DNA of 64,000 nucleotides, from NCBI GenBank assembly GCA_035266085.1, contig DATFNZ010000012.1:2061-66060 (forward strand), in the 5' to 3' direction. Positions 3,517 to 52,873 of the stretch are shown here, piece after piece. Source of the stretch: Thermoanaerobaculia bacterium (lineage in GTDB: Bacteria; Acidobacteriota; Thermoanaerobaculia; Multivoradales; UBA5704). The translations under genes were made by a program, and so were the position numbers. The notes under the pieces were generated by a model. It had not been told where the DNA came from, did not search any database, and saw only the letters and a list, made by a program, of their open reading frames with translations. Position 1 is the stretch's first letter. Each line of letters begins with the position of its first letter.

Positions 3517-3531
3517 CGGCACGCCGATTGC
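3517..3531 (+). promoter_or_regulatory. sigma-54 (-24/-12) type promoter
   Basis: cGGCACgccgaTTGC matches TGGCAC-N5-TTGC at every position except the first T. It ends 54 nt upstream of the ATG at 3585. Confidence 0.6.
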
Positions 3532-3584
3532 TCATCCTGTGGTTGTCGGCCAACGGAAAAGTAATCTTTAAGGAGGGTTCTATC

Positions 3585-4142
3585 ATGATCGCTACAATTG
3601 AGAAGCCAATGAACGTGCAAGCGGCCATCGACGAGCTAATCACCCCGGAGCCGACCATCAAAGACCCGAGTGTCAGCTACAACGTAGCTCAAAGGTTGAT
3701 TACGGCGACAGTGATCGTTTCGTACGTACCCGACCCCAGCGCACCCAACCAGAGCATTCCAAAGATTGTCGCGCCTATCATTGCCATCCCGAAATCCAAA
3801 GACGAACTGGACAACTGGACTGTGCTTTGGATTCTAAAGGCCGGTCCCGGCTTCTCTAGGGATTTTCCTCCTGTCTTCCATCCCGAGGAAGGAATCACGA
3901 TTCCGCCGCCGCCCGGGGGGAAGCCAGTTTTGCTGAAGCCGGCTAGCGTCAATTTCATAGATTTGGGGCCGGTGAGAGAAAACCAAGCCCAGTGGCGGGT
4001 AACGTTCAATAATAATGTCCCGAGCTCGAGTGAATTCGATTATGGCATTGGAGTCATTCCTACGACAATTCAGGGCCGTGTGCTACCGGCCTTCTTCCAT
4101 GATCCCACCATCATGGTTGCGAGCGAGCCGATCGATGGCTGA
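3585..4142 (+). CDS. hypothetical protein (185 aa), lower-GC cargo gene
   Basis: Track ORF 3528..4142 trimmed to ATG 3585, preceded by AAGGAGG. Composition is non-repetitive and normal (MIATIEKPMNVQAAIDELITPEP...FHDPTIMVASEPIDG). No signal peptide and no family confidently recognised. Its 3' end overlaps the convergent kinase gene by 32 nt. Confidence 0.6.
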   Translation: MIATIEKPMNVQAAIDELITPEPTIKDPSVSYNVAQRLITATVIVSYVPDPSAPNQSIPKIVAPIIAIPKSKDELDNWTVLWILKAGPGFSRDFPPVFHPEEGITIPPPPGGKPVLLKPASVNFIDLGPVRENQAQWRVTFNNNVPSSSEFDYGIGVIPTTIQGRVLPAFFHDPTIMVASEPIDG

Positions 4143-6780
4143 GCGCTGAAGAAGGAAAGTCGGGCTCGCCGCGCAAGGAATCGAAGAACGGGTGGTCGAA
4201 CCAGCGGGCGCCGACACCGCGGCTCGCCGCCTGTCGTACCTGAAAGAGTGCCGAGCCGCGGTCGCCAACCAGGACGTAGACGACCGCGGCTTCATAGGCA
4301 AGTTGGGGATTGTCCGGTGCAAGCCGGAGGGCCTCCTGGATGGTGCCTACGGCTTTCATGGTCTCGCCCAGGTGGGCCAAGGCTTGCGCCTCTACGGAGC
4401 GGAGCTCCCAGTTGCCGGGCGTGGCCATGCGCTCAGCCGTGGCGGCGACCTGAACGTAGAGCGGCCGGGCCTCTACCTGCCGGCCGGTAAACGTGATGCA
4501 GTCGGCGAGGTTCAGTTTGATGGATGGACTGTCCGGCTGTAACTCTAGGGCTTGGCGGAGGCTCTTCTCAGCTTCGCCGTAATGCCGGAGCAGAAGCAGA
4601 GCCACGCCGAGGTTGTTGAGCGACTTGGGGCCAGAGTCAAGCCGGGCAGCCTCTTTGAGCAGCGCGACGGCCCGATCGGGATCGCGCAGCAGCTCGATCT
4701 GTGCCAGGGCTTGCAGGCCCTCGACGTTGCCGGGGGACTTGGCCAGCAACTGTTCAAGGTGCTGCCGCGCGCCGTCAAGCTGGCTCTGACGATATTCGGC
4801 ATTGGCCAGCGTGAGGAGATTTTGCCAGGAAGGCTGCAGGCGGACAGCTTCAGCTATTTGTTTCAAGGCCTCTTCCGGTTGCCCGCGGCGCTCGGCGAGT
4901 TGGCCGCTCCGGAGCAGGCTGGCTACCGGATCGATTTCCGCGATCTGTTCCAGGAGGGCTCCGGCCTCGCCGAACCGACCGGAGTTCAGGTTAAGTAAGA
5001 AGAGGGCTTCGAGCGGCTGGGGATTGTCGGGCGCCAGCTCCCGGGCTTTCCGGGCCACGGCGAGGCCCCGGTCAAGGTAGCGTTCTTCTCCCGTGTCGGA
5101 ATACAGCCTGCGGGCCAATCTTGCTTCGAGCACGTAGGCGTCAAGGAACGACGGAGCCTTTTGCCGGAGCTCGCCCAGACGGGTGAGGATTTCATCAAGG
5201 CCTTGAGGATTGGCGAGCCGCTGGCGCAACGCCAGGAAGGTGCGGTAGTCCTGCTCCTCGATCTCCAGTTCGAGCCGCGGTACGCGCAACTCGCGGTCGG
5301 CATAGCCCTGCCGGAGAGAGGCAGAGACGGCGTTGGCGAAGAGGCGTGGAGCCGAGATGGGAAGGCGCTGGACGCCCGACCAGAGCACCCGGCCGTCCGC
5401 GCCATCCAGACGGCGCAGGCTCACTTGGCAGAGGTCTCCGGCGCAGTCGGCCTGCGAGACCACGACTTCACCGGCCGCCACGGCATGTGCAATCTCTGTG
5501 GGCGTTCCCTTCACGGGATTGACCTGCAAGGTATCGAGAGCCGCCAAGCCGTCCAGGGCGGCCACGGTACGCAGCAGGGCGGACTGGAGATTGAGCCTCA
5601 CCTGGACGCTGTCGTCCGCGAGCAGCGATCCCAAGATCTCCGGCTTGAGCACAGCCACGTAGACAGGCAGTTTCGGCTTACGCAGCAGGAAGACGGCCGT
5701 GGCCCCAGCCACCAAGAGCAGGAGGGCAGCCGCGGCGAGCCACGGCCAGAGGCTCCGGTTGCGCCGTGGCGCCGAGTACGGGGCCGCGCCGGAGCTGCCG
5801 GACTCCCAGAGCCCGGCCGCCGTCAGCTCGGCGAGGATGGCCGTCGCGTTCGGGTAGCGATCCCCGGGCTCCTTGGCGAGGCAGCGGGTGGCGATGCGCT
5901 CCAGGGCCTCCGGCACGTCCGGGCGGAGGCTGCGGAGAGGCGGCGGATCCTCGAAGAGGATCGCGTGCACCATACCCTTGCGCTCGCCGCCGAACGGGCG
6001 CTCCCCGGCCAGCATCTGGTGGAGCACCACGCCGAAGGCCCAGAGGTCCCCGGCGGTGCCGCTGCCGCTGGTATCGCCGCGGAGCTGCTCGGGCGCCATG
6101 TAGGCCGCCGTGCCCACCACCACGCCCTGCTCCGTGACAGTGGGAGACTCCGCCCATTTGGCCAGACCGAAGTCGAGGAGCTTCGCCCGCTTCTCGCAAG
6201 TGATCATCACGTTCTCGGGCTTCAAATCGCGGTGGACGACGCCCGCGGCGTGGGCCGCCGCCAGGGCTGAGGCGAGCTGCCCGGCGATCGCGGCGGTCTC
6301 GGCGATGGAGAGCCTGCCCACGCGGGCGAGCAGGGCGGCCAAGGTCTCGCCATCGTAGAACGCCATGGCGATGAAGCGCCGGCCCTCGTGCTCGCCCACC
6401 TCGTAGATGGTGCCGATGTTGGGATGGTCGAGCGCCGCGGTGGCCTGCGCCTCCCGGCTGAAGCGAGCGTCGTCGCGGGAGTTGCGCGCGGGCTGTGCGA
6501 GGAACTTCAGCGCCACCACGCGGCCCAGCTCGAGGTCCACGGCCTTGTAGACGACGCCCATGCCGCCGCGGCCCAGGAGGCGCTGAATGCGGAAGTGGGA
6601 GATCTGACGGCCGACGAGCGGGTCCTCGCTCGAGTTGGGGACTGCGTTCAGGGCCGTCAATCCAGCAGGCAGGGTCAGCCCGTCGAGAGAGGGCAGCGGG
6701 AGCGGCGCGCCACAGGCCGGGCAGAGCGAATCGAACTCGGAGTAGCCCTGACCGCAGGCTGGGCAGAAGAGCTCCGTCAT
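4111..6780 (-). CDS. Ser/Thr protein kinase with N-terminal zinc-ribbon, one TM segment and C-terminal TPR repeats
   Basis: Real start is ATG 6780 (MTELFCPACGQGYSEFDSLCPACG) within track ORF 4111..8325. Hanks kinase motifs are present: GRGGMGVVYKA...ALK, HRDLKPENV, DFGLAK, YMAPE. A hydrophobic stretch WPWLAAAALLLLVAGATAVFLL follows, then multiple TPR-like repeats. The start overlaps the upstream stop (ATGA at 6777-6780). Confidence 0.9.
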   Translation of the reverse strand: MTELFCPACGQGYSEFDSLCPACGAPLPLPSLDGLTLPAGLTALNAVPNSSEDPLVGRQISHFRIQRLLGRGGMGVVYKAVDLELGRVVALKFLAQPARNSRDDARFSREAQATAALDHPNIGTIYEVGEHEGRRFIAMAFYDGETLAALLARVGRLSIAETAAIAGQLASALAAAHAAGVVHRDLKPENVMITCEKRAKLLDFGLAKWAESPTVTEQGVVVGTAAYMAPEQLRGDTSGSGTAGDLWAFGVVLHQMLAGERPFGGERKGMVHAILFEDPPPLRSLRPDVPEALERIATRCLAKEPGDRYPNATAILAELTAAGLWESGSSGAAPYSAPRRNRSLWPWLAAAALLLLVAGATAVFLLRKPKLPVYVAVLKPEILGSLLADDSVQVRLNLQSALLRTVAALDGLAALDTLQVNPVKGTPTEIAHAVAAGEVVVSQADCAGDLCQVSLRRLDGADGRVLWSGVQRLPISAPRLFANAVSASLRQGYADRELRVPRLELEIEEQDYRTFLALRQRLANPQGLDEILTRLGELRQKAPSFLDAYVLEARLARRLYSDTGEERYLDRGLAVARKARELAPDNPQPLEALFLLNLNSGRFGEAGALLEQIAEIDPVASLLRSGQLAERRGQPEEALKQIAEAVRLQPSWQNLLTLANAEYRQSQLDGARQHLEQLLAKSPGNVEGLQALAQIELLRDPDRAVALLKEAARLDSGPKSLNNLGVALLLLRHYGEAEKSLRQALELQPDSPSIKLNLADCITFTGRQVEARPLYVQVAATAERMATPGNWELRSVEAQALAHLGETMKAVGTIQEALRLAPDNPQLAYEAAVVYVLVGDRGSALFQVRQAASRGVGARWFDHPFFDSLRGEPDFPSSALSHRSARSQP

Positions 6781-8300
6781 CCCTCCCCCGCGGCGAGGGC
6801 TGGCCGGTGGCGGGCGAGGAGCTTCTGCAGATAGCTCCGGTGGAGCCCGGATTCCCGGGCCGCCCGCGAGACGTTGCCATCGGAACGCCTCATGAGGTCT
6901 TCGATGAAACGGCGCTCCACGTCGGCCACGCTCGCCTCGCGGGCTTCGTTCAGCGACTCGCCGGTCAGCTCGCGGAAGACCGGCTCGGGAGCGGGACCGT
7001 CGCCGGCCGCTCCGGCCACTTCCGGTGGCAGGAGGCCGAGATCCAACTCCGGCCCCTGGGCCAGCAGGCAGGCCCGCTCGACGGCGTGAGAGAGCTCGCG
7101 GACGTTGCCTGGGAAGTCGTAGGCGAAGAGCGCGCGCTCGGCTCTTGGCGTCCAGCGGGGCTTCTCGCCCGCCCGCCGCCAGTGCCGGCGCAGGAAGTGG
7201 TCGGCCAGCAGCAGGACGTCGCCCCGGCGGTCGCGCAGCGGCGGCAGCTTCAGGTCGAGCACCTTGAGCCGGAAGTAGAGGTCTTCCCGGAAATGTCCGT
7301 CGCGAATCATCTGCCGGAGGTCGCGGTGGGTGGCGGCGACGACCCGGACGTCCACCTTCTCCGTGCGGTCCGAGCCGAGCCGCTGGATCTCGCCGAATTG
7401 TAGGAAGCGGAGCAGCTTCGCCTGCGCCTCGATGGGGATCTCGCCGACCTCGTCGAGGAAGAGCGTGCCGCCATGGGCGGCGGCGAGCCGGCCCGGGCGG
7501 TCGCGCTTGGCGTCGGTGAAGGCTCCCGCGACGTGGCCGAACAGCTCGGACTCCAGCAGCGTTCCCGGCAGGGCGGAGCAGTGGACGGTGACGAACGGCT
7601 TGCCTCGGCGCGGGCTGTTGACGTGGAGGGCGCGGGCGATCAGCTCCTTGCCGGTGCCGGTCTCGCCCAGCACGAGGATGGGAGCGTCCGCTCCCGCGAC
7701 CTGGGCGACGACCCGCAGCAGCTCGACCATGCGGGGATCGCGGGTGACGATCCCAGCGAAATCGTTTTGGGAAAACAGCTCGCCTTCCAGGCTCCGGTTG
7801 CGCCGCCTCAGGGCCTCGCGCTCGCTCGCTCGCAGGAGGAAGAGCCCGGCGATCTCGGCGAGCCTGGTGAGGAAGGCCCGGCACTCTTCGTCGAAGCTGT
7901 CCACCTTTTGGCGATTCTCGAGGTAGACGACGCCATAGACCTCGCCACCGTGGCGAAGGGGCACGACCAGGGCGCAGCAGAGGCCGATGAAAAGAGCGCT
8001 CTCGCCGGAGCCGAAGCGGTCGTCCTCGATCAGGTTCGGCAGGTAGATGACCTTCCCGGTCTCGATCGCCTCGCGCACCAGCGTGCGGCTGTACCGGCGT
8101 TCGGCCGCGGAGCGCTGCTCGCGTTCGTACCCGACCTCGAACTTCTGCTGGAACGAGCCCTCCTCGCGCACCACGACGAAGCCCGTCTCTGCGCCGCACC
8201 GCTCGACGATGCGGCGCAGCAGGAGCTCGGGCGCCCGTTCGTCGTCCTCCTCGGCGAGGAGGAGCTTCGAGATCTGGAATAGCTCCTCGTAGAGGTTCAT
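6777..8300 (-). CDS. sigma-54-dependent transcriptional activator (GAF - AAA+ - Fis-type HTH)
   Basis: N-terminal region is GAF-like. Walker A is GETGTGKELIARALH, the GAFTGA-type loop is GAFTDA, Walker B is LFLDEVGEI, followed by FREDLYFRL. The C-terminal HTH is GNVSRAARESGLHRSYLQKL. GGAGG lies 8 nt before ATG 8300. Confidence 0.92.
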   Translation of the reverse strand: MNLYEELFQISKLLLAEEDDERAPELLLRRIVERCGAETGFVVVREEGSFQQKFEVGYEREQRSAAERRYSRTLVREAIETGKVIYLPNLIEDDRFGSGESALFIGLCCALVVPLRHGGEVYGVVYLENRQKVDSFDEECRAFLTRLAEIAGLFLLRASEREALRRRNRSLEGELFSQNDFAGIVTRDPRMVELLRVVAQVAGADAPILVLGETGTGKELIARALHVNSPRRGKPFVTVHCSALPGTLLESELFGHVAGAFTDAKRDRPGRLAAAHGGTLFLDEVGEIPIEAQAKLLRFLQFGEIQRLGSDRTEKVDVRVVAATHRDLRQMIRDGHFREDLYFRLKVLDLKLPPLRDRRGDVLLLADHFLRRHWRRAGEKPRWTPRAERALFAYDFPGNVRELSHAVERACLLAQGPELDLGLLPPEVAGAAGDGPAPEPVFRELTGESLNEAREASVADVERRFIEDLMRRSDGNVSRAARESGLHRSYLQKLLARHRPALAAGEG

Positions 8301-8485
8301 ACCGCCTGCCTCCGATCAATGACACCTGCCTCTGGGATCAGACAGAGCTTAACCGATTTGTAAGCCAATGTCTTGAGCGGAGGAAGAGTTGGTGTTTCGG
8401 GGGCTGGGCCCAGGAAAAGAGGAGATCGTTAGCTCGTCTGTGCAACTGCAAGCATATCGAGAAAGCCATGAGCAGATCTCAATGA

Positions 8486-8507
8486 GCTGCCTTCGCCGAG
8501 TGGCAGC
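8486..8507. promoter_or_regulatory. candidate enhancer (UAS) palindrome GCTGCC-N10-GGCAGC
   Basis: GCTGCCttcgccgagtGGCAGC. The core CTGCC-N10-GGCAG is identical in half-sites and spacing to 3445-3464. It ends 64 nt upstream of the -24 GG at 8570, one helical turn further than at the first promoter. Confidence 0.4.
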
Positions 8508-8568
8508 CATGAGCTGGAGAGTGGCTCAAAAGCTTGGAATATCAACGTTTTACGTTGTCGGCATCTCT

Positions 8569-8583
8569 TGGCAAAGGGGTTGC
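8569..8583 (+). promoter_or_regulatory. sigma-54 (-24/-12) type promoter
   Basis: TGGCAAaggggTTGC has one mismatch to TGGCAC-N5-TTGC. It lies about 200 nt upstream of ATG 8783 in a low-GC divergent intergenic region. Confidence 0.5.
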
Positions 8584-8782
8584 TATATAGGCTGATGTCA
8601 GCAACAAGGATTAAACGATGGGTGTACAGGAAAGCACCAGTCACTTACGGAAGGAGAGAAAGGCAAAAGAAGATCCACTTATAAAGAAAAATATTTCTCC
8701 TCATAACTGACCTCACTGGGCGACATTTCTGTCGCTCGCCAGGAGCCTTGACTCCTTAACCTCAACAAGAAAGGAAATACAC

Positions 8783-17201: not shown

Positions 17202-17990
17202 ATGCGAGCCAACCTTACCCTGGCCGTTCTCCTGCTCGGACTCCTCTCGGGCTGCGGAGGCGGGGAGGCGCCGCCGTCCGGCCTCCATGCCTCCTTTCCC
17301 GGGCGGGATCCCAGACTGCGGTCCGGCTCGCATTCGTTCCTCTCCTCGGCCGTCACGTCGACGGGAACGGCGGCCTTCGCCTGGCTCGACAACCGGGCGG
17401 GGCGGCGAGGTCTGGCTGGGCTATCGCGACCGTGAGCCGGACGACCTGCGGGATTTCCGCGTGCTGCGGAGCCGGTCGGATCCTCCGGAGTTCGGTAACG
17501 GCGTGAAGCTCTCGGAAGACGGCTGGAAGATCAACGGCTGCCCCGAGACCGGCGCGAGGTTCGCCCAGACGCCGGACGGCACGCTCTGGGCCGCCTGGTT
17601 CACGGCCGGCGGCGTGCCCGGCGTCTACCTCACCTCTTCGCGCGATGGAGGAGCGAGCTTCGCCCGGAGAACCCTGATGAGCACGCCCGGCCGGCTGGCA
17701 AGGCCCCCCGAGATCGGCGCCCTCCCGGATGGCAGGATCGTGCTGCTCTACGAGAGCATCGAGGAAGGCGGCGCCCGTCCCTTGGTCGCGAGGGTTCGCG
17801 CCGCCGCCGGAGAATGGGGGCCGCCGCGTTCGGTGGCTTCCGAGGGGGGATTATCCTCGTCTCTCGGCGAGCGGCGAGCGGGGAGCGGGCGGTGGTGGCC
17901 TTCACCCGGCGTTCCGGGGAGAAGCCGAGCGTGGTGGTGGAGGAGTGGGCTTTTCTTGAGGCGGGGGAACTGAGGGAGGAGGCTCGCTGA
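17202..17990 (+). pseudogene. BNR/Asp-box (sialidase-fold) lipoprotein gene interrupted by two frameshifts
   Basis: AAGGAGG lies 5 nt before ATG 17202, and the lipobox is LLSGCGG. The sensible reading continues in a second frame after the G-rich run near 17396-17406 (..AFAWLDNRAG / EVWLGYRDREPDD..). It continues in a third frame after the G-run near 17842-17850 (..SVASEGG / IILVSRRAASGERAVVAFTRRSGEKPSVVVEEW..*). The Asp-box-like motif is TSSRDGGASF. Confidence 0.5.
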
Positions 17991-18068
17991 AGGGACCGTC
18001 CACGATGACCGCAGCCTGCCGTGCTAGAGTTTGGCGGCAGATGCTGAGCTGAAATTACGAGAGGCCCG

Positions 18069-19292
18069 ATGCCACAGCTACTCGGTCTAAGGATTCAGAA
18101 TTACAAGTCGTTGTCGGATGTAAGCCTTGGTCAGGTCGGTTATGGCCAAGGGGATCCTCTACCGCCCCTGAGCTGTTTCATCGGACCGAATGGCAGCGGA
18201 AAATCGACTTTGCTGGATGCTTTCGGCTTTATGGCGGATTGCCTGCGTGAAGGCGTTGAATCCGCGTGTGATAAATCTCAGCGAGGCGGCTTTTCCAAGG
18301 TTCGGACCCAGGGAACCACAGAGGCCATCCGTTTTGAGCTCTACTATCGGGAGAGCCTTCAGTCTCGGCCGATCACCTATAGCTTCGCGGTCGACGAGGT
18401 CGGCGGCGTACCCGTGGTCGTGGAGGAGACCTTGCGGCAGCGGCGCAAAGGGCAGAAACATGGCAGACCCTATCCGTTTCTGCGCCTGGAAAGAGGAGAG
18501 GGGCGTGTCTGGGCCGGTGATGCGATCGAGGATCAAGAGGGTGCGGCCTCCCTCGAGATCGAGCTCGATGACGTGGGCCGACTCGGTATCACGACGCTCG
18601 GTCAGCTGAAGGAGCACCCGCGTATCGTCGGTCTCCGTTCCTACATCGAAAGCTGGTATCTCTCCTACTTCGTTCCCGACGCTGCCCGCACCCTTCCGGT
18701 TGCGGGAGCGCAGAAGCACCTGGACCGCACGGGCGAGAATCTGGGCAACGTCGTGCAGTATCTCGAACGAGCCCATCCTGATCGGTTTCAAAACGTGTTG
18801 GACCGTATCGCTCGCAAGATTCCAGGCATACAGACGATCACTCATGAGAAGAGCCCGGATGGCCGCCTTCTTTTGCGCTTCAACGAGCGCGGATATGAGG
18901 ACCCATTCTATCAACAGAGCATGTCGGACGGCACGTTGAAGATGTTTGCCTATCTACTTCTCCTCGAAGACCCGGAGCCACGCCCCTTCATCGGCGTCGA
19001 AGAACCCGAAAACGGCCTCTACCACAAACTCCTCGAAGACCTGGCACGCGAGTTCGTCCGGCACGTGGAGCACTCTCGAGGCGAGACGCAGATCCTCGTC
19101 ACGACACACTCGCCTTACTTCGTGGATGCGCTTAAACCCGAGCAGGTCTGGTTGATGGAAAAGGACGAGAGCGGGCATACCACGGTCAAGCGAACGGCTG
19201 ACCTGCCGATCGTCATGGAGATGGTGAGGGAAGAGATCCCCCTGGGCAGCCTCTGGTATAGCAACCACTTTGAGGAGAGGTTTGCCCATTGA
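18069..19292 (+). CDS. ABC/SMC-like AAA ATPase (AAA_15/AAA_21-type, OLD/AriA/RloA-like)
   Basis: Walker A is GPNGSGKST, the signature-like motif is SDGTLKMFAYL, the Walker B-like motif is FIGVEEPENGLY and the His-loop is ILVTTHSPYF. GC is visibly lower than in the flanks. Confidence 0.85.
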   Translation: MPQLLGLRIQNYKSLSDVSLGQVGYGQGDPLPPLSCFIGPNGSGKSTLLDAFGFMADCLREGVESACDKSQRGGFSKVRTQGTTEAIRFELYYRESLQSRPITYSFAVDEVGGVPVVVEETLRQRRKGQKHGRPYPFLRLERGEGRVWAGDAIEDQEGAASLEIELDDVGRLGITTLGQLKEHPRIVGLRSYIESWYLSYFVPDAARTLPVAGAQKHLDRTGENLGNVVQYLERAHPDRFQNVLDRIARKIPGIQTITHEKSPDGRLLLRFNERGYEDPFYQQSMSDGTLKMFAYLLLLEDPEPRPFIGVEEPENGLYHKLLEDLAREFVRHVEHSRGETQILVTTHSPYFVDALKPEQVWLMEKDESGHTTVKRTADLPIVMEMVREEIPLGSLWYSNHFEERFAH

Positions 19293-19915
19293 GGCTGCAC
19301 GTTCTTGTGGAAGGAGCCTCCGAGGAAGCGTTCTTGAGAGGGTGGTTTCCCCGATTCCTGCCTGGTCACGCTCTCCAGGTTATCCCGCATCGGGGCAAAG
19401 GAAGGCTGCCTGGCGAGCCTTATAAGGCGCCGAACCTGAAGCGGGAGGGACTCTTGGACCAACTCCCGGCGAAGCTTCGGGCGTATGGCCGAGCCTTAAA
19501 CCCTGCTACGGACCGTCTCCTCGTGCTCCTCGATCTCGATGACGATTCGTGTATCGAGTTGAAAGGACGTCTGATCGCACTTCTCAATCATTGCAATCCC
19601 AAGCCGGTCGTACTCTTTCGAATCGCAATTGAGGAAACGGAAGCCTTTTACCTCGGAGATCCTCGGGCCATCAAAGAGGCTTTTCCTCAAGCGAATCTGC
19701 GGAAGCTCAGGAATTACATACAAGACAGTATCTGCGGCACATGGGAAGTGTTCCGCGAAGTCGTGGGAGCCCCAAGCGAAGACAAGGTCCATTGGGCCGA
19801 ACGGATGGGGCCTCATCTCGGTATCGATCGGAAGGGTGGGACGGCGAATCGTTCGACTTCCTTCCAGCAGTTTTGCCAGGCACTTCTTACCTTGGCAGGC
19901 GAGCCCCTCGACTGA
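19289..19915 (+). CDS. DUF4276-like protein (possible Toprim-like nuclease partner of the ATPase)
   Basis: The TTG start overlaps the ATPase stop (TTGA). The N-terminus MRLHVLVEGASEEAFL matches my recollection of DUF4276 family starts and of strand-Glu Toprim starts. Size is 208 aa. Confidence 0.65.
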   Translation: MRLHVLVEGASEEAFLRGWFPRFLPGHALQVIPHRGKGRLPGEPYKAPNLKREGLLDQLPAKLRAYGRALNPATDRLLVLLDLDDDSCIELKGRLIALLNHCNPKPVVLFRIAIEETEAFYLGDPRAIKEAFPQANLRKLRNYIQDSICGTWEVFREVVGAPSEDKVHWAERMGPHLGIDRKGGTANRSTSFQQFCQALLTLAGEPLD

Positions 19916-19916
19916 C

Positions 19917-20351
19917 ATGCCCCCCTCCCAACGCAAAGCCCCACCCCCGCCCGACCCCGAGAACGGGCTGTGGCAGGGGCGGTCCGTCGCCCGGCGGTTC
20001 GTGTCGCCGGATGGCTTCACCGTGCTGGTGGGGCGGACGGCCGATGACAACGACGTGCTGACGTTCAAGCTGGGGAGCCCGCGGGACTTCTGGCTGCACG
20101 TCGCCGCCGAGTCGGGCTCCCATGTGGTGGTGCGCAACCCCGAGGGGCTCGACCGGCTGCCCAAGGAGACGGAGCAGTTCGCGGCGTCGCTCGCGGCCGG
20201 CTACAGCAAGGCGAAGAAGGGCGGGCGGGTGGCCGTCCATCTCTGCCGCTGCGAGGACGTCAGCAAGCCTCGTGGAATGCCGCCCGGCAAGGTCCTCCTG
20301 GACCGCTTCCGGAGCGTTCAGGTCGCTCCCTGGCGGCCGGACGCCGGCTAA
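19917..20351 (+). CDS. NFACT-R/DUF814 domain protein
   Basis: ATG at 19917 within track ORF 19629..20351. FTVLVGRTADDNDVLTFKLGSPRDFWLHVAAESGSHVVV...GKVLL fits the DUF814 pattern. Confidence 0.7.
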   Translation: MPPSQRKAPPPPDPENGLWQGRSVARRFVSPDGFTVLVGRTADDNDVLTFKLGSPRDFWLHVAAESGSHVVVRNPEGLDRLPKETEQFAASLAAGYSKAKKGGRVAVHLCRCEDVSKPRGMPPGKVLLDRFRSVQVAPWRPDAG

Positions 20352-36683: not shown

Positions 36684-37111
36684 TGCGAGGGCTCCTCGAC
36701 ATCAACGTGCTTCTCGCGCTACTTGATGCCGACCACGTCGACCATCAGAGAGCCCAGAAGTGGATTTCAGGGGAGATCCAGCACGGCTGGGCATCGTGCG
36801 CCCTGACGCAGAATGGATTCGTCCGCATCATCAGCCAGCCGAAGTACCCCAGCCCGGTTTCTCCTTCCGAGGCCGTCGAACGACTGCGCCGATCGACCGG
36901 CACCGAGTATCACGAGTTCTGGCCCTGCTCCATCAGCTTTCTCGAAGACCGCCGCATAAACTCCAAACACGTTCACGGGCCGCGCCAAGTGACAGATGTC
37001 TATCTTCTTGCTCTTGCCGTGGAGCATGGAGGAAGGTTTGTAACCTTCGATCATTCCATTCCTCGGTCGGCGGTGCCGGGGGCTGGGCCACAGCATCTCG
37101 TAGCTATCTGA
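36683..37111 (+). CDS. vapC: type II toxin, PIN-domain VapC family
   Basis: MRGLLDINVLLALLDADHVDH..., with a C-terminal FVTFD motif. Track ORF 36680..37111 begins at TTG; ATG 36683 is preferred. Confidence 0.85.
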   Translation: MRGLLDINVLLALLDADHVDHQRAQKWISGEIQHGWASCALTQNGFVRIISQPKYPSPVSPSEAVERLRRSTGTEYHEFWPCSISFLEDRRINSKHVHGPRQVTDVYLLALAVEHGGRFVTFDHSIPRSAVPGAGPQHLVAI

Positions 37112-37118
37112 ATAGCTC

Positions 37119-37335
37119 AAGGCGACGCCCGCGTCCAGGCACTGCTGGAGCGGCGGCTGGGGGCCTTCGAAGAGCGTACCGACCGTCGGGAAGGGAGCGT
37201 CGCCCTGGAAGGGCGGGATTTGAACAGCCCGGGGTGCCAACCCCGGGGATACAGGCCCGTACCTCCGTCCCGAGCCCCAAAGGGCCGACAGAAGCGCCCT
37301 GCAAGATTGCCTACCCTTTAAGATTCGTCGCCGCC
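37119..37335. repeat. direct-repeat copy b (full-length ~215 bp)
   Basis: The first ~90 nt match 36304-36394. From 37160 to 37335 it matches 39563-39737 (..ccttcgaagagcg..gggaagggagcgt.gccctggaagggcgggatttgaacagccc...ccgtcccgagccccaaagggccgacagaagcgccctgcaagattgcctaccc.ttaagattc.tcgccgcc). Confidence 0.65.
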
Positions 37336-37421
37336 TCTAGTACTCGTCCTAAAGTTCGTTCCGGATATGAGGGACTGTGACGTCGGGAGGTGGTGATGGG
37401 ATCCCACGTTTTCCCCGCCAC

Positions 37422-37629
37422 GGAGACGCCCCGACGTTGTCGATTCCGAAGCGGTAGGGGTGACTCGTCTGGGACGTCTCTACGGGACGATCACGCGTTG
37501 ACGGAGGGTGGGGTCAAGGCGACGCCGTGCCCTCAACCCCGTTCGTCCGGCCTGCCTCCAACGCTCCGTAGAGACGACCCAGACGGGTCACGAAGAGGTC
37601 TCGGAGGCCTCCTACGTCGGGGCGTCTCC
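37422..37629. repeat. nested palindromic element A (~208 bp) built from two inverted ~65-bp GAGACG/CGTCTC-ended units
   Basis: ggagacgccccgacgt (37422-37437) pairs with acgtcggggcgtctcc (37614-37629). Inside, gactcgtctgggacgtctctacgg pairs with ccgtagagacgacccagacgggtc. It shares the GTAGAGACG core with the MITE-like elements. Confidence 0.55.
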
Positions 37630-37693
37630 GGGGCGGAGGAATCGCTCGCTTTGCTCATCCTTCAACCGTCACGGCGTTCCGCCGTCCAGGCTT

Positions 37694-38098
37694 TCAGTGC
37701 AGCGGAAACCCGGAACCAACTTCGGGACGTCGTATTAGGCTAGGCGGCTCGCAAGGGGCAAGATCCGCGTCCGGCAGTGGGGACAAGCCAAGGTCGGCCA
37801 GAACACGGTTGATCGTGGCTGCGGCGACCTTACCAGGAGCCGTTATCTCCAGACCGATCGGCCGGCCCCCTGCGGCGAAGTCGATCAGCAGACCCGGTGC
37901 GGCCTGCTCGGTCCTGACGCTTTTCTCATTGCCCTCTCGAGGGAGATAGAGATAGGCCGCCAGCGGCCGGCCATGGCGGAATGTGATCTCTCTGCTCGCG
38001 AAGCGCCTGACACCTGGTCTGGTCTTGGAGTGCGAGAGGGCGGTAGTAAAGCGGATGGACAACGAGAGGTCTGGCGATAGATAATTTAGCAACTTCAA
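37694..38098 (-). pseudogene. degenerate copy of the DUF2283-like gene at 40137..40409
   Basis: Nucleotides ~37741-37995 are near-identical to ~40138-40392. This copy lacks the MKEPYLEITF start (the upstream sequence is unrelated). A 1-nt difference near the 3' end shifts the frame past the stop used in the other copy. Confidence 0.4.
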
Positions 38099-38112
38099 TA
38101 AGGGGACTAGAT

Positions 38113-39387
38113 ATGCGCAAGTGGCTTTTTGCCATGGCGGGTCTGGCGCTTTTTTCTGCGCCAGCTTTCACGCAGTCCAGCGAGGAATTTATCCTCCTCA
38201 AGGCTAGGAGCACTAAGGTTGGGGCCGATTGCACGGGTGGTGCTCGTTATGATGACGGAACCTTCGAATCGGGCTACAAGTTCAACAGCTTTGTTGTGTC
38301 TACGGGATCCTATGTGATGGCGTTCGATTTGCCCGCAGGAGCGAACGGCGTTACGTCGGTCTGCACCTGCTGGCTTAGGGACGTCACGGTCTCCGACCCC
38401 ACGAGCGCCATCGCATTTGCCGTCAATGTTTGGGCAGCTGACGGGCCCGGGGGTTCTCCGGGGTCTCTCCTTGGGCAAGGAGTCGGGAATGCACAAAGTG
38501 TTGGAGGTTTACCCAAGTTCTACAGGACGGAACTTAACATTCCAGTCTCTGGAAATCGAGTATGGATCGGCCCTCAGTGGTCTCCGGGTGCTGCCAGCTT
38601 CTTCTTCCTGTGCGCCGACCAAAATGGACCACTTGTCCAGCCCGCGTTTCGTTCCGAAAGCACTGCCGTACCTAGCCAAAATGTCTCCACGGTATTTCCA
38701 AACTACCGGACGCTAGGCATTCGGGCAGAGTTCAGCCTTGCGCCGGTGCCAACCGCCCCAGCTGCGCCCTCCGGCCTGTCTGCCCAAGCTGTTTCAAGTT
38801 CGGAGATCGTTCTGAACTGGCAGGATAACTCAACAAATGAAGACGCCTTCCGAGTCGAGCAGATCATCGGTAGCTCTTTCTTGGAAATTGGGACTGTTGC
38901 GTCCGGAGTCGCTACCGTGCGAGTGAACGGCTTATCACCCTCCACTCCCTATGCCTTCCGGGTGCGGGCCAGTAACGGCGCCGGCAACTCTCCTTACAGC
39001 AATACTGCTGACGCGACCACGCAAGCTGCTTCCCTCCCGCCTCCGCCGCCTGCCGGTACATGGCTCACAAACTCCCAACTCCCCGGGTTCCAGTTCAAGG
39101 TCCGGATCAGCGGCGGCTCCTTGGGAACTCAGGTAGCCGACTGTGTCCCGGAGACCCTCTGCGTCGCCGGCGCCATCCCGACCCGCTCGGAACTCTTCCT
39201 CCGGATCATCGGTCCTCGGCCGAATGGCTTCCTCTGGGCGCAGGTCATCCGCTTTACGACATCCCGGCTTGAGACGTGGGTACAGAGGACCTCGGGAGGG
39301 CCCATCCGGTACTACGACCTGCCCTCAGTACCGCAGGACAGCGCGGTGCTCTCGGGCTTGGTCGACAAGGAAGCCTTCCAGCCCTAG
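38113..39387 (+). CDS. secreted protein with a central fibronectin type III domain
   Basis: Signal peptide MRKWLFAMAGLALFSAPAFTQ. The FN3-like segment is PSGLSAQAVSSSEIVLNWQDNSTNEDAFRVEQ...LSPSTPYAFRVRASNGAGNSPYS. The flanking domains are unrecognised. GC is lower than in the flanks. Confidence 0.7.
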   Translation: MRKWLFAMAGLALFSAPAFTQSSEEFILLKARSTKVGADCTGGARYDDGTFESGYKFNSFVVSTGSYVMAFDLPAGANGVTSVCTCWLRDVTVSDPTSAIAFAVNVWAADGPGGSPGSLLGQGVGNAQSVGGLPKFYRTELNIPVSGNRVWIGPQWSPGAASFFFLCADQNGPLVQPAFRSESTAVPSQNVSTVFPNYRTLGIRAEFSLAPVPTAPAAPSGLSAQAVSSSEIVLNWQDNSTNEDAFRVEQIIGSSFLEIGTVASGVATVRVNGLSPSTPYAFRVRASNGAGNSPYSNTADATTQAASLPPPPPAGTWLTNSQLPGFQFKVRISGGSLGTQVADCVPETLCVAGAIPTRSELFLRIIGPRPNGFLWAQVIRFTTSRLETWVQRTSGGPIRYYDLPSVPQDSAVLSGLVDKEAFQP

Positions 39388-39562
39388 CCTTGCGGCCAAT
39401 TTGCCGGAGCAGCCCCTCATAGGGATCTGGCTGCTCCGGCTTTCAATTTCCCAACGCTCCCTGCTACTTGACCAGCCACCCTGCAGGTTCTCTCTATATT
39501 GGGGGCAAGCCGCCAAGAGCGCCTCGCGGGCTGCTCGCAAAGCGCCTGACACCTGATCCGGG

Positions 39563-39737
39563 TGGGGCCTTCGAAGAGCGTGCCGACCGTCGGGAAGGGA
39601 GCGTTGCCCTGGAAGGGCGGGATTTGAACAGCCCGAGGCGTCAGCCCCGGGGACGCAGGCCGGCACCTCCGTCCCGAGCCCCAAAGGGCCGACAGAAGCG
39701 CCCTGCAAGATTGCCTACCCGTTAAGATTCTTCGCCG
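39563..39737. repeat. direct-repeat copy c (~175 bp)
   Basis: Matches 37160-37335 with scattered substitutions; see copy b. Confidence 0.65.
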
Positions 39738-39815
39738 CCGGAACGAACGTCGAGCACGTGGTACTAGGAGCCTGCGCGCCAGAACGCCGGATCGCAGCGA
39801 GACCTTCCCTCTGGC

Positions 39816-40088
39816 GGCACCGTCCCTGTAGAGACGTGCCAGGTCGTAACCACAACCGTTTTTGGGTCACCACGACCGCGGGACGTCTCTTTCGGAGGGC
39901 ATGCCGCTTCAGCCGGCAAAACCCCCATGGGCGTCCCCAACGTCGGGCGCCCCTAATGTCGGGCCTGGTTCTGCCTCGCATGGGTACAGGATCCCCCGAA
40001 CGGCATACCCTTCGAAGAGACGTTCCGCGGTCGTGGTCGCCAAGAGGGTTCTGGTTACTACCTGGAACGTCTCTACGGGGACGGTGCC
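39816..40088. repeat. nested palindromic element B (~273 bp) built from two inverted ~70-bp GTAGAGACG-ended units
   Basis: ggcaccgtccctgtagagacgtgccaggtcgtaaccacaacc...caccacgaccgcgggacgtctctttcggagggcatgccg pairs with cggcatacccttcgaagagacgttccgcggtcgtggtcgcc...ggttctggttactacctggaacgtctctacggggacggtgcc. Confidence 0.55.
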
Positions 40089-40136
40089 ATCAGAGGGACG
40101 TCTCGCTGGCGAACACGCGTTCTGGCGCGCAGGCTC

Positions 40137-40409
40137 CTAGGCGGCGGTTCGCAAAGGGGCAAGATCCGCGTCCGGCAGTGGGGACAAGCCAAGGTCGGCC
40201 AGAACACGGTTGATCGTGGCTGCGGCGACCTGGCCGGGAGCAGTTATCTCCAGACCGATCGGCCGGCCCCCTGCGGCGAAGTCGATCAGCAGACCCGGTG
40301 CGGCCTGCTCGGTCCTGACGCTTTTCTCATTGTCCTCTCGAGGGAGATAGAGATAGGCCGCCAGCGGCCGGCCATGGCGGAAGGTGATCTCTAGGTAGGG
40401 TTCTTTCAT
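40137..40409 (-). CDS. DUF2283-like small protein
   Basis: Track ORF 40137..40475 trimmed to ATG 40409. MKEPYLEITFRHGRPLAAYLYLPRE...GLLIDFAAGGRPIGLEITAPG fits the DUF2283 pattern (..ayiyl...e.....vD.d..G.iiGiEi). Confidence 0.6.
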   Translation of the reverse strand: MKEPYLEITFRHGRPLAAYLYLPREDNEKSVRTEQAAPGLLIDFAAGGRPIGLEITAPGQVAAATINRVLADLGLSPLPDADLAPLRTAA

Positions 40410-40655
40410 ACGTGATGGCTCCACTTTCAGCTCGGAGTTTGCATCACCCCTTATCTTTTCAGTCGTACTTCCCAACGTTCAGGCAGTGGGGACCGTGTGC
40501 TAGCGCTGTATCCGCCCTCTCGACCGCCTTGGTTGAGTGCCTTCGCTAATCTGGGTAGCCGCACGATTTTACGTCGAGTTCGCTGCTAGTCTTGATACCT
40601 TGGTGGTGCTTGTGGCAAGCTGCGTTATCTAGGCAACTCCTGGTACTGCCTTTTC

Positions 40656-41681
40656 TTAGTAGTAGGGATTTATATCACCAAATTTCTGGGTAGAGAATAT
40701 AACATTAGGATTTCCGAAGAGAAGCCATGAGCAGTAGTAGATCCTGTCGGGAGCGGCCGCTTTCCTTCCTGCTTGCACCGCTTCACCCAGGCTGTCTCCT
40801 GCAACGAGTCCTTGGTAGAGCGCGTCATAGTAAGCGCTTACAGAAACTTCCCCTGAGCTGCCACCACTAAGGAACCTGCAGTAGGCACCTATAGATGCCA
40901 GAGCACCCTTCTTGACGAAGGTCGGCGCAACTCCGTTCATCTTACCACCAGCGTTGCAACCTAAAAAGAAGTAGACGATCGGGCCACTATCCGAATAAAG
41001 ATCGCGTACGTCAATAGGCATGCCATACGGGTTATCTATCTGCAATGAAGTGATTGTTCCATGGCACTCGAAGTGTAAGATGTCAATGTCACTTCTTCGA
41101 AACAAGCCCGCAGCAATTTCCTTTGTAGGATAAAAGTAGTGCTCGATGGCTAATGGGGTACTAAGGCCAAGAGTCGCCGATATGACATCCATGTCATGAA
41201 GAGTAGTTGGTCGTGGATCGTACGAGCATACGTGAGCGATTCGCCGAAGGCTTGGCTTCTCGCCATGCAAAACTTTAAGGAGCCATGCAGTAGCCTCGCT
41301 TCCGGCAAAAGCGTGTGCCACTATACATTCAATTCCAATCAGGCACCCCCGGCACGGGACGAGATCAACGGGAATGATTCTCTCTGAAATTACAAGAACG
41401 TGCGAGAAGCATTCTGGAAGCTTGTCCCACTCCAAAGATTCCCCTGCGCTGGCCGCCTGAAGCGCAAGTATAACGCCGAGTTCCTCTGCCAATGGCAGCC
41501 AAGTGCCTCTAGCCGCGGCGAGGCTAGTTGGTGGATGCAAGCTAAGCGCGCGATCAAGCTCATCAAGAGAACTTTGAAGCTGGCTGTCCATCCTCAGTGG
41601 GGTCACACAACAGCCTTGGGCGCGCAGGCTATTCAGCATACCGAACTCGTGCAGCGTAGTTAGGACCAGAACTCTTGTCAT
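40656..41681 (-). CDS. stand-alone CHAT-domain (caspase-fold, clan CD) protein
   Basis: Track ORF 40656..41732 trimmed to ATG 41681. The His/Cys dyad context is IDILHFECHGT ... VYFFLGCNAGG. The gene is low GC and has no TPR or other partner domain. Confidence 0.7.
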   Translation of the reverse strand: MTRVLVLTTLHEFGMLNSLRAQGCCVTPLRMDSQLQSSLDELDRALSLHPPTSLAAARGTWLPLAEELGVILALQAASAGESLEWDKLPECFSHVLVISERIIPVDLVPCRGCLIGIECIVAHAFAGSEATAWLLKVLHGEKPSLRRIAHVCSYDPRPTTLHDMDVISATLGLSTPLAIEHYFYPTKEIAAGLFRRSDIDILHFECHGTITSLQIDNPYGMPIDVRDLYSDSGPIVYFFLGCNAGGKMNGVAPTFVKKGALASIGAYCRFLSGGSSGEVSVSAYYDALYQGLVAGDSLGEAVQAGRKAAAPDRIYYCSWLLFGNPNVIFSTQKFGDINPYY

Positions 41682-41685
41682 AATT

Positions 41686-42225
41686 CTACTCTGAGTTGAT
41701 ACGACCAACTTCCCCCGGCCGATGAAGCGCATCCTTCAGCCGCTCGATCGCCAGATCCACGATGGTTTGTGTGACAAAGAGGCTGCTGACTTTGTAGAGC
41801 TCTCGGAGGTGGTGCTCGGCAGCTTCAATGGGAATCCGGCCCATCTGGTGCGCTTTGGCAATGATGCCCAGAGAGCCAACGGGAGTGAGTCCGAGACTCC
41901 TCGCGGTTCGTCGCACCGCGAGATCGTCGGTCAGCAGCAGAGGCACCGCAAGCTTCGAACAGAGCAGGAGGCTCTCCCGCTCTCCTGATTGAAGCTTCGA
42001 CAGCCCATGGTCTGCCGTGAATCTCGTGATCTCGTCTCTCTGGAGGGAGTGACGCTTCGCGAACGTGAGCCCGTCCCGGATCGTCGAAGGCCGGTCTGCC
42101 TCTTGCCAGACACCCTCGGGGATGTGGAGCTCCTCGAAGATCGAGAGGAGGGGCAGGCAATCGATTTCCGCGAGATGGATCAATGGGCCGGTATCGGCGA
42201 CCGCGACTAGTGGCCCTGAGCCCAC
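41686..42225 (-). CDS. DUF3368 (PIN-like) putative toxin
   Basis: GTG start. VADTGPLIHLAEIDCLPLL...ESLLLCSKLAVPLLLTDDLAVRRTARSLGLTPVGSLGII is typical of DUF3368 PIN-like proteins paired with UPF0175. Confidence 0.75.
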   Translation of the reverse strand: MGSGPLVAVADTGPLIHLAEIDCLPLLSIFEELHIPEGVWQEADRPSTIRDGLTFAKRHSLQRDEITRFTADHGLSKLQSGERESLLLCSKLAVPLLLTDDLAVRRTARSLGLTPVGSLGIIAKAHQMGRIPIEAAEHHLRELYKVSSLFVTQTIVDLAIERLKDALHRPGEVGRINSE

Positions 42226-42455
42226 TCCAGATCCTCGTTCATCGCCGTGTACTGTTGCTCCGCAAGCTCTACCCAGTCGATGCCCACACGCTCGATTGCC
42301 TTCTCTCTGGAAAGCTCTCCACGCAGAAACTGGCCCAGGGTCCGCTCGCGCCAGAGTTGGCGAAGGCCAGCTTCAAAGGCCATCGCCATGATCTCCGCTT
42401 CGGACTTTTGGAGTTCCCGCGCCAGGCGTGCAAGGGAGGTTGAGGTGGTTGCCAT
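42207..42455 (-). CDS. UPF0175-family putative antitoxin
   Basis: Track ORF 42207..42569 trimmed to ATG 42455. ...EAEIMAMAFEAGLRQLWRERTLGQFLRGELSREKAIERVGIDWVELAE fits UPF0175. It overlaps the DUF3368 gene by 19 nt. Confidence 0.7.
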   Translation of the reverse strand: MATTSTSLARLARELQKSEAEIMAMAFEAGLRQLWRERTLGQFLRGELSREKAIERVGIDWVELAEQQYTAMNEDLEWAQGH

Positions 42456-42543
42456 GGGGCTTCTCGGGTTGGCCTCGGCGGGAACGCCGATGCTGTGGGA
42501 AAGTTTAGCAGACTTGATGCAGGGGCGCAGGATCTCGGAAGCG

Positions 42544-42610
42544 AATCGACAGGATCCCCCCGCGTCCACGCCGGCAGCCCGGCGGAAGAAGTACGCTCAA
42601 TGCGACTCGG
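42544..42610 (+). pseudogene. short internal fragment of a methyltransferase gene (copy of 47961..48026)
   Basis: aatcgacaggatcccc..gccggcagcccggcggaagaagtacgctcaatgcgactc compares with gatcgacatgatccccgcg..gggcggcccggcggaagaagtaccctcaatgcgacttc in the intact gene 47706..48341 (peptide AARRKKY.QCD in both). Confidence 0.5.
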
Positions 42611-42806
42611 TGCCAGCGGACAGGCAGGCCAGCAGGAGAAACAGGGCGGAGAGAGCCGCCCGCCTGCAGGGGACGAAGAACAGCTCAATCTGCTTTGACG
42701 GACCACTACGCGGCTCGCAAAGGGGGCGAAAGAGGGGAGGAGCCCGCAGGCTTCTCCCGTTCTTCTCGTGGTGCTGGCCCCGCTAGCCGGCGAAGGATTG
42801 TGCAAA

Positions 42807-51673: not shown

Positions 51674-52873
51674 ATGAGACCGCGGCCGGCACGACACCTC
51701 GCACTCCTGGCGGTCGCCTTGGCCTTCGGCGTGGCGGACCCCGCCCAGTCGGCGGAGCTGACGGCGGTCCTCACGCAGCTCCAGGGGAACGTGACCATCG
51801 CCGAAGCCGGCCCGCCGCGCCGGGGCGGGGCCATCTTTCCGGTGCCTCGCCCGGCGCGATTCCTCCAGGTGGTGGGGAGGGGAGACAAGGTCAACGTGCC
51901 CGCCGGGGCCGGAGCCGGCTTCGTCTGCTCCATGGACCGTTGGGTGGAGCTGTCGGGGGTAAAAGACCAGCCATTGTCCGAGTCGCTCTGCCTCGCCGGC
52001 AAGCCGCTGCCGCCGGGCACCTATCGCCGGCTGGCGCCCGCGGCGGGAAAAATGATCAGCCTCAAGGGCGTGCTCGTCTTCGAAGGAGAGACCCGGGGTG
52101 ACGAAGACGAGGACTTCGCAATCCCCCTCGTCCTCAGCCCGCGCAGGACGGCCGTGCTCGACCCCCGGCCCAAGATTTTGTGGACGCAGGTCGCGGATGC
52201 CACCGAGTACGCGATCGAGCTGTCAGGCCCAGGCCGGTTCCTGATCCGGCTGGACGCCGGCCAGGTGGCTTGCGGCGAGCGATGGGGAGACGCCGTCGTT
52301 TGCTCGATGCCATACCCCGATTCGGCGCCGGACCTCCCGCCTGGGACCCTCTCCTTTCTCAGCGTCGGGGCTCGTCGAGGCCTGGCGGCGCCCTTGAGGG
52401 CCGAGGCCCGGCCGAACCGCATCCAGCGGCTTTCCCTTGACAAGGCGGAGGAGGTACGGACGCGGTTGGAGTCTCTGCGGAACCTGCCTCTGGACGACGC
52501 CACCCGCGGGCTCCTGGAAGCGGACCTCTACGCCCATGAGGGCCTTTTCGCGGACGCCATTCTCGCCTACCGGAAGGCTTTGAGCCATGGCGATGCCCCC
52601 GAAATCCGCGTGACGCTCGGCGACGCATACCTGAAGATCGGCCTCCTCCGTCTGGCCGCCCGCACGTATCAGGAAGTCCTGGACGGGACCTCCGGCCTCG
52701 CCATCCAGGCCAGCGCCGAACTGGGCCTCGGAAGGATCGAGCACATCCGCAGGAGCTCCGAGCGCGCGGCCTGTCATTTCCGGAAGGCCAGGGACTTGTA
52801 CCTGTCTGTAGGTTTGAAGGAAGAGGCGGCGGCGGCTGATCGAGCGGCGAGAATTGGAGGCGGTCTCAGATGA
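51674..52873 (+). CDS. secreted protein with C-terminal TPR-like repeats
   Basis: Signal peptide MRPRPARHLALLAVALAFGVADPAQSA. The N-terminal two-thirds are beta-rich and the C-terminal ~130 aa are TPR-like (EADLYAHEGLFADAILAYRKAL..). It lies 6 nt after the CHAT gene, and its stop overlaps the next start (ATGA). Confidence 0.65.
   Translation: MRPRPARHLALLAVALAFGVADPAQSAELTAVLTQLQGNVTIAEAGPPRRGGAIFPVPRPARFLQVVGRGDKVNVPAGAGAGFVCSMDRWVELSGVKDQPLSESLCLAGKPLPPGTYRRLAPAAGKMISLKGVLVFEGETRGDEDEDFAIPLVLSPRRTAVLDPRPKILWTQVADATEYAIELSGPGRFLIRLDAGQVACGERWGDAVVCSMPYPDSAPDLPPGTLSFLSVGARRGLAAPLRAEARPNRIQRLSLDKAEEVRTRLESLRNLPLDDATRGLLEADLYAHEGLFADAILAYRKALSHGDAPEIRVTLGDAYLKIGLLRLAARTYQEVLDGTSGLAIQASAELGLGRIEHIRRSSERAACHFRKARDLYLSVGLKEEAAAADRAARIGGGLR

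Follow-up and report, generated by a model that had tools for sequence, protein, structure and literature searches.

The HEC-01 locus

We analyzed a 64,000-nucleotide stretch of contig DATFNZ010000012.1 from a Thermoanaerobaculia bacterium (assembly GCA_035266085.1, positions 2,061 to 66,060), hereafter the window, which carries a cassette of two genes encoding a predicted ATP-binding cassette (ABC) ATPase and a DUF4276 protein, here called gene A and gene B. Both lie on the + strand, gene A at 18069-19292 (ATG start, 407 amino acids) and gene B at 19289-19915 (TTG start, 208 amino acids), and they overlap by 4 nucleotides (TTGA), confirming the arrangement proposed in a first-pass annotation made from the sequence alone. 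The two genes are translationally coupled via this overlap. A GAGGAG sequence is found about 12 nucleotides upstream of the gene B TTG, and a ribosome-binding-like GAGAGG lies within the 95-nucleotide spacer ahead of the gene A ATG; a promoter scan of this spacer did not find a sigma-70 consensus promoter. The G+C (GC) content of 18069-19915 is 0.576, compared with 0.696 in the 8 kb on either side and 0.667 for the whole window, in agreement with the compositional drop noticed in the first pass.

Both proteins match the PADLOC models of a named candidate system, HEC-01, over essentially their full length. Gene A aligns with HEC-01A (PDLC04182, E 2.1e-175) through residues 1-403 on profile positions 1-402 of 406, and gene B with HEC-01B (PDLC04205, E 6.7e-58) through residues 1-200 on positions 1-210 of 213. 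The components that PADLOC uses to call HEC-01, namely an A model, a B model and adjacency of the two genes on one strand, are all found here, and the pair is almost certainly an ordinary copy of HEC-01. The pairing had been thought to be uncharacterized as an anti-phage system. This view is not supported, because the combination of ATPase and DUF4276 protein is already named, as HEC-01 in PADLOC-DB v2, and two phage tests of it have been published. HEC-01 is one of nine "Hma-embedded candidates" and has been described as an ABC ATPase plus TOPRIM protein, with a metal site likened to the one in BpOLD (Payne et al., bioRxiv 10.1101/2024.01.29.577857).

Gene A is a predicted OLD/PtuA/AriA-type ATPase

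Judged from its sequence, gene A encodes an ABC ATPase of the OLD/PtuA/AriA kind in which the nucleotide-binding motifs are all intact. Pfam assigns it to AAA_21 (E 3.1e-37), with AAA_15 also matched. The Walker A, signature-like, Walker B and H-loop motifs that had been read from the translation are each present, and most of their residues are invariant across 34 homologues (Table 1). An AlphaFold (AF2) model with a predicted local distance difference test score (pLDDT) of 80 and a predicted template modeling score (pTM) of 0.83 was searched with Foldseek, and the top matches were the retron I-A ATPase (9n69_C, 1.2e-12), Thermus OLD (6p74, 4.7e-12) and Septu PtuA (8eea, 5e-12). The heads of Rad50, SMC and RecN rank below these defence ABC ATPases. 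The earlier classification of gene A as an OLD/PtuA/AriA-type AAA_15/21 ATPase is upheld by Pfam, PADLOC and Foldseek alike.

Position 18069 can be regarded as the right start of gene A because all homologues are about 407 amino acids long and share a conserved N-terminus. A database entry for this ATPase (P0276) has 360 amino acids and is 100% identical over 88% of the query; its start would fall just past Walker A if the 47 absent residues are N-terminal. Among syntenic genomes, the ATPase is 85-91% identical in most cases (78% in L031) and the gene B protein 69-77% (L001-L005, L013 and L031). The flanking FKBP and peroxiredoxin genes are 72-84% identical, i.e. less conserved than the ATPase.

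Gene B is a DUF4276 protein with a Toprim-like N-terminal half

The gene B protein, which begins (M)RLHVLVEGASEE, divides into a Toprim-like domain at its N-terminus (residues 1-115) and a helical one at its C-terminus (residues 118-203). Its score against Pfam DUF4276 (PF14103) is 30.0 bits (E 7.7e-07), slightly below the gathering cut-off of 30.2 bits. All 57 members of a diverse set of relatives match PF14103 (best 3.1e-14), and close homologues are already annotated with this family in the database, so the first-pass annotation named the right family. An exact-sequence look-up of gene B in the contig index gave no match.

The AF2 model of gene B (pLDDT 91, pTM 0.86) shows four beta-alpha units in order, with strands at residues 2-7, 28-33, 75-82 and 108-113, helices at 10-23, 55-69 and 88-100, and a helical C-terminal half. 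A glutamate after strand 1, a DxD motif at the end of strand 3 and a second acidic cluster after strand 4 are invariant in the same 57 sequences, which extend down to 28% identity (Table 1); K166 and S191 are invariant as well. The Toprim hallmarks of a conserved glutamate behind strand 1 and a DxD behind strand 3, set on a beta-alpha-beta core, are present in gene B. Apart from DUF4276, the only Pfam families matched by more than one of the relatives are DUF3226 (11/57) and OLD-like_TOPRIM (10/57, best 2.2e-3); against gene B itself, OLD-like_TOPRIM remains below threshold (E 0.13).

Searches for a structural homologue of gene B did not give a significant result. With significance set at E ≤ 0.001, the best Foldseek matches of the model were at E 0.067 in the PDB and 0.017 in BFVD, and a profile of the 57 DUF4276 sequences found nothing significant among PDB sequences. 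The match of this profile to PH0156 (2p62) is weak and confined to the Glu motif. Toprim proteins recur among the sub-threshold Foldseek matches, which include the Toprim domain of a topoisomerase IIA (3ksa; E 0.12, probability 0.72, root-mean-square deviation 5.3 over 110 columns), AriB (8v46_D, E 0.12), RloB-like proteins and a primase. Because our own structure and profile searches were not significant, the Toprim assignment rests on topology, motifs, these recurrent sub-threshold matches and published work: two analyses place DUF4276/HEC-01B in the Toprim superfamily (bioRxiv 10.1101/2024.01.29.577857; PMC12065111, PMC11464382). We accept that the N-terminal half of gene B is Toprim-like with a Glu, a DxD and a second acidic cluster, although this is not proven by structural search. 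The idea of a Toprim-type partner is thus retained for its topology and acidic residues, but drew no significant match from either Foldseek or the PDB profile search.

A and B form a mobile module across bacterial phyla

Gene B has 737 relatives in clusters at 90% identity and 648 representatives at 50% identity. Linkage was assessed in 80 genome loci seeded with gene B, which span at least nine phyla (Acidobacteriota, Myxococcota, Desulfobacterota, Chloroflexota, Planctomycetota, Proteobacteria, Nitrospirota, Bacillota, Actinomycetota and others). Gene A immediately precedes gene B in 77 of these loci. In the other three, the sequence breaks off at a contig end or at a scaffold gap, where the last 11 residues of gene A are still visible, so that adjacency is contradicted in 0/80. 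Conservation across the loci is confined to these two genes. Wherever full flanks were available (47/47 loci), the pair has a lower GC content than its surroundings, with a median difference of 0.073. Copies were found on 2 of 72,556 plasmid records and 1 of 50,697 phage records, as well as at three loci on IMG/VR contigs; on the conjugative Pseudomonas plasmid pGLE121P3, the pair is situated between type IV secretion system (T4SS) genes and the relaxase. A-B is a horizontally mobile accessory module.

Occupied and empty alleles of the insertion site

As had been recognized from the sequence, the cassette is wedged between a frameshifted gene and a DUF814 gene, which we identify as a broken BNR_2 gene (17199-17973) and an NFACT-R gene, respectively. 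The counterpart of the broken gene in the relative L085 (4476-5657) is an intact open reading frame (ORF) for a 393-amino-acid BNR_2 lipoprotein, compared with which the window copy is short of about 300 and about 113 nucleotides, shifting its reading frame. L085 and L086 are the closest relatives by their flanks (TonB receptor 87%, peroxiredoxin 89% and NFACT-R 92% identity) and carry the order FKBP - TonB receptor - BNR - 359-nucleotide palindromic spacer - NFACT-R without A-B. Between the window and the empty site of L085, homology stops at 17967 and restarts at 19916, and the NFACT-R ATG follows 1 nucleotide past the gene B stop.

The same site is occupied by A-B in eight Thermoanaerobaculia genomes, where the genes run FKBP - A - B - NFACT-R - peroxiredoxin. 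The empty allele is seen in metagenome loci seeded with the NFACT-R protein, in many of which the FKBP stop lies 4 nucleotides from the NFACT-R start. In a neighbor-joining tree of NFACT-R plus peroxiredoxin, which is of low resolution (about 300 amino acids), occupied alleles do not separate from empty ones but intermingle with them. A-B is a presence/absence polymorphism, i.e. an indel, at a conserved chromosomal site, and the NFACT-R gene is a resident that lies outside the A-B system. A private recent insertion in the window genome was rejected given the eight related genomes with the pair at the same site, and fixation in the clade given the common empty sites interleaved with occupied ones in the same low-resolution tree. 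There are no tRNA genes in the window and no recombinase genes adjacent to the cassette, and a search for direct or inverted repeats flanking it returned only short matches at chance level.

The position ahead of the NFACT-R start varies among relatives, where it may be empty or hold the 359-nucleotide palindromic spacer, two small low-GC ORFs, a distant ATPase with an unclassified partner, or A-B. The ATPase in question (L114) is HEC-01A-like at 24% identity, and its partner is a protein of 241 amino acids, which did not match the DUF4276 profile significantly (hhalign probability 0.14). A block of TonB receptor and BNR genes is found between FKBP and A-B in the window (15079-17973) and after peroxiredoxin in L005 (12068-15306), and therefore local rearrangement has taken place among close relatives.

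Table 1. Features of the A-B cassette and its insertion site. Coordinates refer to the window, except in the last row, where they refer to the loci named.
Feature	Position	Strand	Evidence or remark
Left edge of cassette	17968..18068	+	End and stop of broken upstream gene (to 17973), then 95-nt spacer
Gene A, HEC-01A ABC ATPase (AAA_21/AAA_15), 407 aa	18069..19292	+	PADLOC, Pfam, AF2 model, Foldseek
Walker A / P-loop GPNGSGKST, residues 39-47	18183..18209	+	G39, P40, N41, G42, G44, K45 invariant
ABC signature-like SDGTLKMF, residues 286-293	18924..18947	+	S286, D287, T289, L290, K291 invariant
Walker B / D-loop region VEEPE, residues 310-314	18996..19010	+	E311, E312, P313, E314 invariant
H-loop TTHSP, residues 345-349	19101..19115	+	T346, H347, P349 invariant
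Gene B, HEC-01B DUF4276 protein, 208 aa	19289..19915	+	PADLOC, Pfam DUF4276, AF2 model
Glu8, after strand 1, position of Toprim catalytic Glu	19310..19312	+	Invariant
D82-L-D84, DxD, end of strand 3	19532..19540	+	D82, D84 invariant
E116-T-E118, second acidic cluster after strand 4	19634..19642	+	E116, E118 invariant
NFACT-R (DUF814) gene	19917..20351	+	Pfam NFACT-R_1 E 2.2e-14; marks right edge of indel
Examples of variable site	L085 5641-5999; L107 5429-5959; L114 3709-5995; L087, L088, L091 junctions		No recombinase seen

Genome neighborhood and defence context

The neighbors of A-B in the window are genes for FKBP, a TonB-dependent receptor, the broken BNR protein, NFACT-R, peroxiredoxin, an MFS transporter and an ASPIC/FG-GAP protein. 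Across relatives, a scan of 94 immediate neighbors in 47 non-redundant contexts identified defence genes as a minority (HmaB four times, mad3 four times, PglZ, mad8 and NsnB twice each), most of the neighbors being genes for metabolism or transport. Embedding in larger defence loci was nevertheless found. HmaA adjoins A-B in L055, and the order A-B - PglZ - BrxD - BrxHI is seen in L026 and L034. In L073, from Binatia (5644-18974), HmaB is followed by A-B, an NsnB/HEC-03-like ATPase, a second HEC-01A of another subtype and HmaC, so that a stack of three ATPase-based cassettes lies between HmaB and HmaC. Some copies of A-B are thus associated with Hma or BREX, and about three quarters of the independent contexts are housekeeping.

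Further stretches of low GC content are present in the window at 3528-4139, about 36700-47700 and 52870-56088 (0.51-0.65 vs 0.67-0.72), and these may be further acquired DNA. They include ORFs of 1073 amino acids (GC 0.53) and 358 amino acids (GC 0.51), neither of which has a sequence match in the PDB. Among 40 ORFs scanned outside 13.7-24.6 kb, one Ser/Thr kinase gave strong PADLOC matches to PD-T4-6, mad6 and PglW, which probably reflects a generic kinase rather than a defence gene. The window further encodes proteins with CHAT and adenosine-deaminase domains.

Proposed function and alternative explanations

We hypothesize that A-B is an accessory module in defence against phages or other invading DNA, in which the ATPase would act as a sensor controlling a Toprim nuclease effector, and assign this a probability of about 0.65-0.7. 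By analogy with PARIS, Gabija/OLD and the Mad3-Mad4 pair of MADS, A would oligomerize and hold or regulate B. An infection cue, or changed ATP binding or hydrolysis, could then license B. B in turn may cleave nucleic acid by a metal-dependent Toprim mechanism, stopping the invader or the infected cell. Candidate substrates are DNA, as for OLD and Gabija, and tRNA, as for PARIS AriB.

Several observations weigh against a defence role. The two published phage tests, both carried out with HEC-01 representatives other than the window copy, disagree. One representative gave no protection in Escherichia coli MG1655 against the phages tried (bioRxiv 10.1101/2024.01.29.577857), and for a HEC-01 from a cold seep, a 2026 paper reports protection of E. 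coli B from at least one of the phages T7, T5 and T4 (PMC12881386). The text consulted gives the protection without quantitative detail, and the representative differs from that of Payne et al. The window itself is not a defence island, with PADLOC matches outside the cassette coming from the single generic Ser/Thr kinase only, and about three quarters of the independent A-B contexts are housekeeping as well. The strong conservation of the ATPase is unusual, as it is atypical of fast-evolving defence sensors. To these points must be added the non-significant structure and profile searches with gene B.

Wadjet and Lamassu are ABC ATPase systems that target plasmids, and A-B could likewise act against plasmids or other mobile DNA, or, as an addiction or stabilization cassette, maintain the DNA on which it resides, instead of acting against phages. 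This would be compatible with the location of a copy between T4SS genes and relaxase on a conjugative plasmid, the few copies on viral contigs and the persistence of the pair at one site across diverged genomes, as well as with the heterologous test that saw no anti-phage effect (bioRxiv 10.1101/2024.01.29.577857). We consider it unlikely, however, given the phage protection reported by the second study (PMC12881386), the great rarity of the pair on plasmids and phages, and close relatives from which the pair was lost or always absent and which show no sign of addiction. A domesticated housekeeping pair for DNA repair or recombination similar to RecF/RecR would account for the housekeeping neighbors in the window and for the 85-91% conservation of the ATPase among syntenic genomes. 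In that pair, RecF is the ABC/SMC-like ATPase and RecR the protein with a Toprim domain. Such a role is nonetheless highly improbable: presence and absence alternate at the same site among close relatives, the GC content of the pair is below that of every host genome examined, its distribution across phyla is patchy, copies are nested in Hma and BREX operons, and the NCBIfam RecF match is restricted to the P-loop (E 0.0011, 18 bits, cut-off 172).

The close packing of gene B and the NFACT-R gene invites the question of whether the functional unit has three genes, with NFACT-R as an RNA/tRNA-binding component; B could, for example, cleave tRNA like AriB, with NFACT-R involved in sensing or rescue. 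Only 1 nucleotide separates the gene B stop from the NFACT-R ATG, which lies on the same strand, and the coding (+) strand shows no terminator-like site in between. In L001, L005 and L013 the two genes likewise adjoin, at distances of 4 to 20 nucleotides, and AriB of PARIS is a Toprim tRNA nuclease. There is, however, very little likelihood of such a unit. Most relatives have NFACT-R with the same neighbors but without A-B, the GC content of NFACT-R is host-like in contrast to that of A-B, and NFACT-R adjoins A-B only in the syntenic Thermoanaerobaculia group (7/80 loci). NFACT-R was rejected as a third component on the same grounds, i.e. the occurrence of the gene and its neighbors without A-B and the lack of linkage outside one clade. 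We give hardly any credence to the combined proposal that the bases before the NFACT-R start are a recombinase-free cargo hotspot in this clade and that NFACT-R is functionally coupled to a tRNA-directed Toprim effector.

Comparison with known ATPase-nuclease systems

The window pair consists of the same two proteins as HEC-01, in the same order and orientation, and within its exact subfamily there are relatives that lie inside Hma and BREX operons. It differs in being placed amid housekeeping genes, as an indel beside the NFACT-R gene with no surrounding defence system. As one more soil Acidobacteriota copy of a catalogued candidate family, it adds little as a single instance. What may be useful for work on HEC-01, whose two phage tests are in conflict, are the comparative data, specifically the strict coupling of A and B in many phyla, the invariant residues, the occupied and empty alleles, the embedding in Hma and BREX and the conserved ATPase.

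A paralogous pair of ATPase and DUF4276 protein, Mad3-Mad4, is part of the validated MADS system (Maestri et al. 2024, cited in PMC12065111, PMC11464382). As in A-B, an AAA_15/21 ABC ATPase is followed by a DUF4276 Toprim protein, and mad3 models match gene A partially (PADLOC 5.9e-19; NCBIfam 1.9e-31). However, gene A scores 109.7 bits on the MAD3 equivalog NF047739, which has a cut-off of 420, and A-B of the window stands alone, with no adjacent methyltransferase or other mad genes. Membership in MADS was rejected on the basis of the Mad3 score below cut-off and the flanks, which are FKBP, the TonB-dependent receptor, NFACT-R and peroxiredoxin.

PARIS is likewise a two-gene system, in which the ABC ATPase sensor AriA is combined with the separate Toprim nuclease effector AriB. 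AriA models match gene A partially (5.5e-35), and AriB chains are among the weak structural matches of gene B. In contrast to AriB, a DUF4435 protein of about 300 amino acids, gene B is a DUF4276 protein of 208, and membership in PARIS was rejected as gene B has no DUF4435 or AriB match in Pfam or PADLOC. OLD and GajA share with the pair an ABC ATPase head with a short helical insertion and a Toprim-type acidic set, but carry ATPase and Toprim in one polypeptide, whereas two genes are found here. With separate ORFs and no adjacent UvrD-like (GajB) helicase, A-B was not assigned to OLD/Gabija.

AbiL and Septu show the same two-gene layout of ATPase and nuclease, and their ATPases AbiLi (1.3e-28) and PtuA (6.2e-12) match gene A partially, with PtuA structures also among its top structural matches. 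They differ in the partner of the ATPase, RloB for AbiL and an HNH nuclease for Septu. AbiL was dismissed since gene B has no RloB match in Pfam or PADLOC and the AbiLi match to gene A is only partial, and Septu since gene B has no HNH match. The OLD/PARIS/AbiL-style system suggested by the first-pass annotation is therefore borne out as a structural reading but not as membership in PARIS, AbiL, OLD/Gabija or Septu, to all of which A-B is a sister two-gene architecture.

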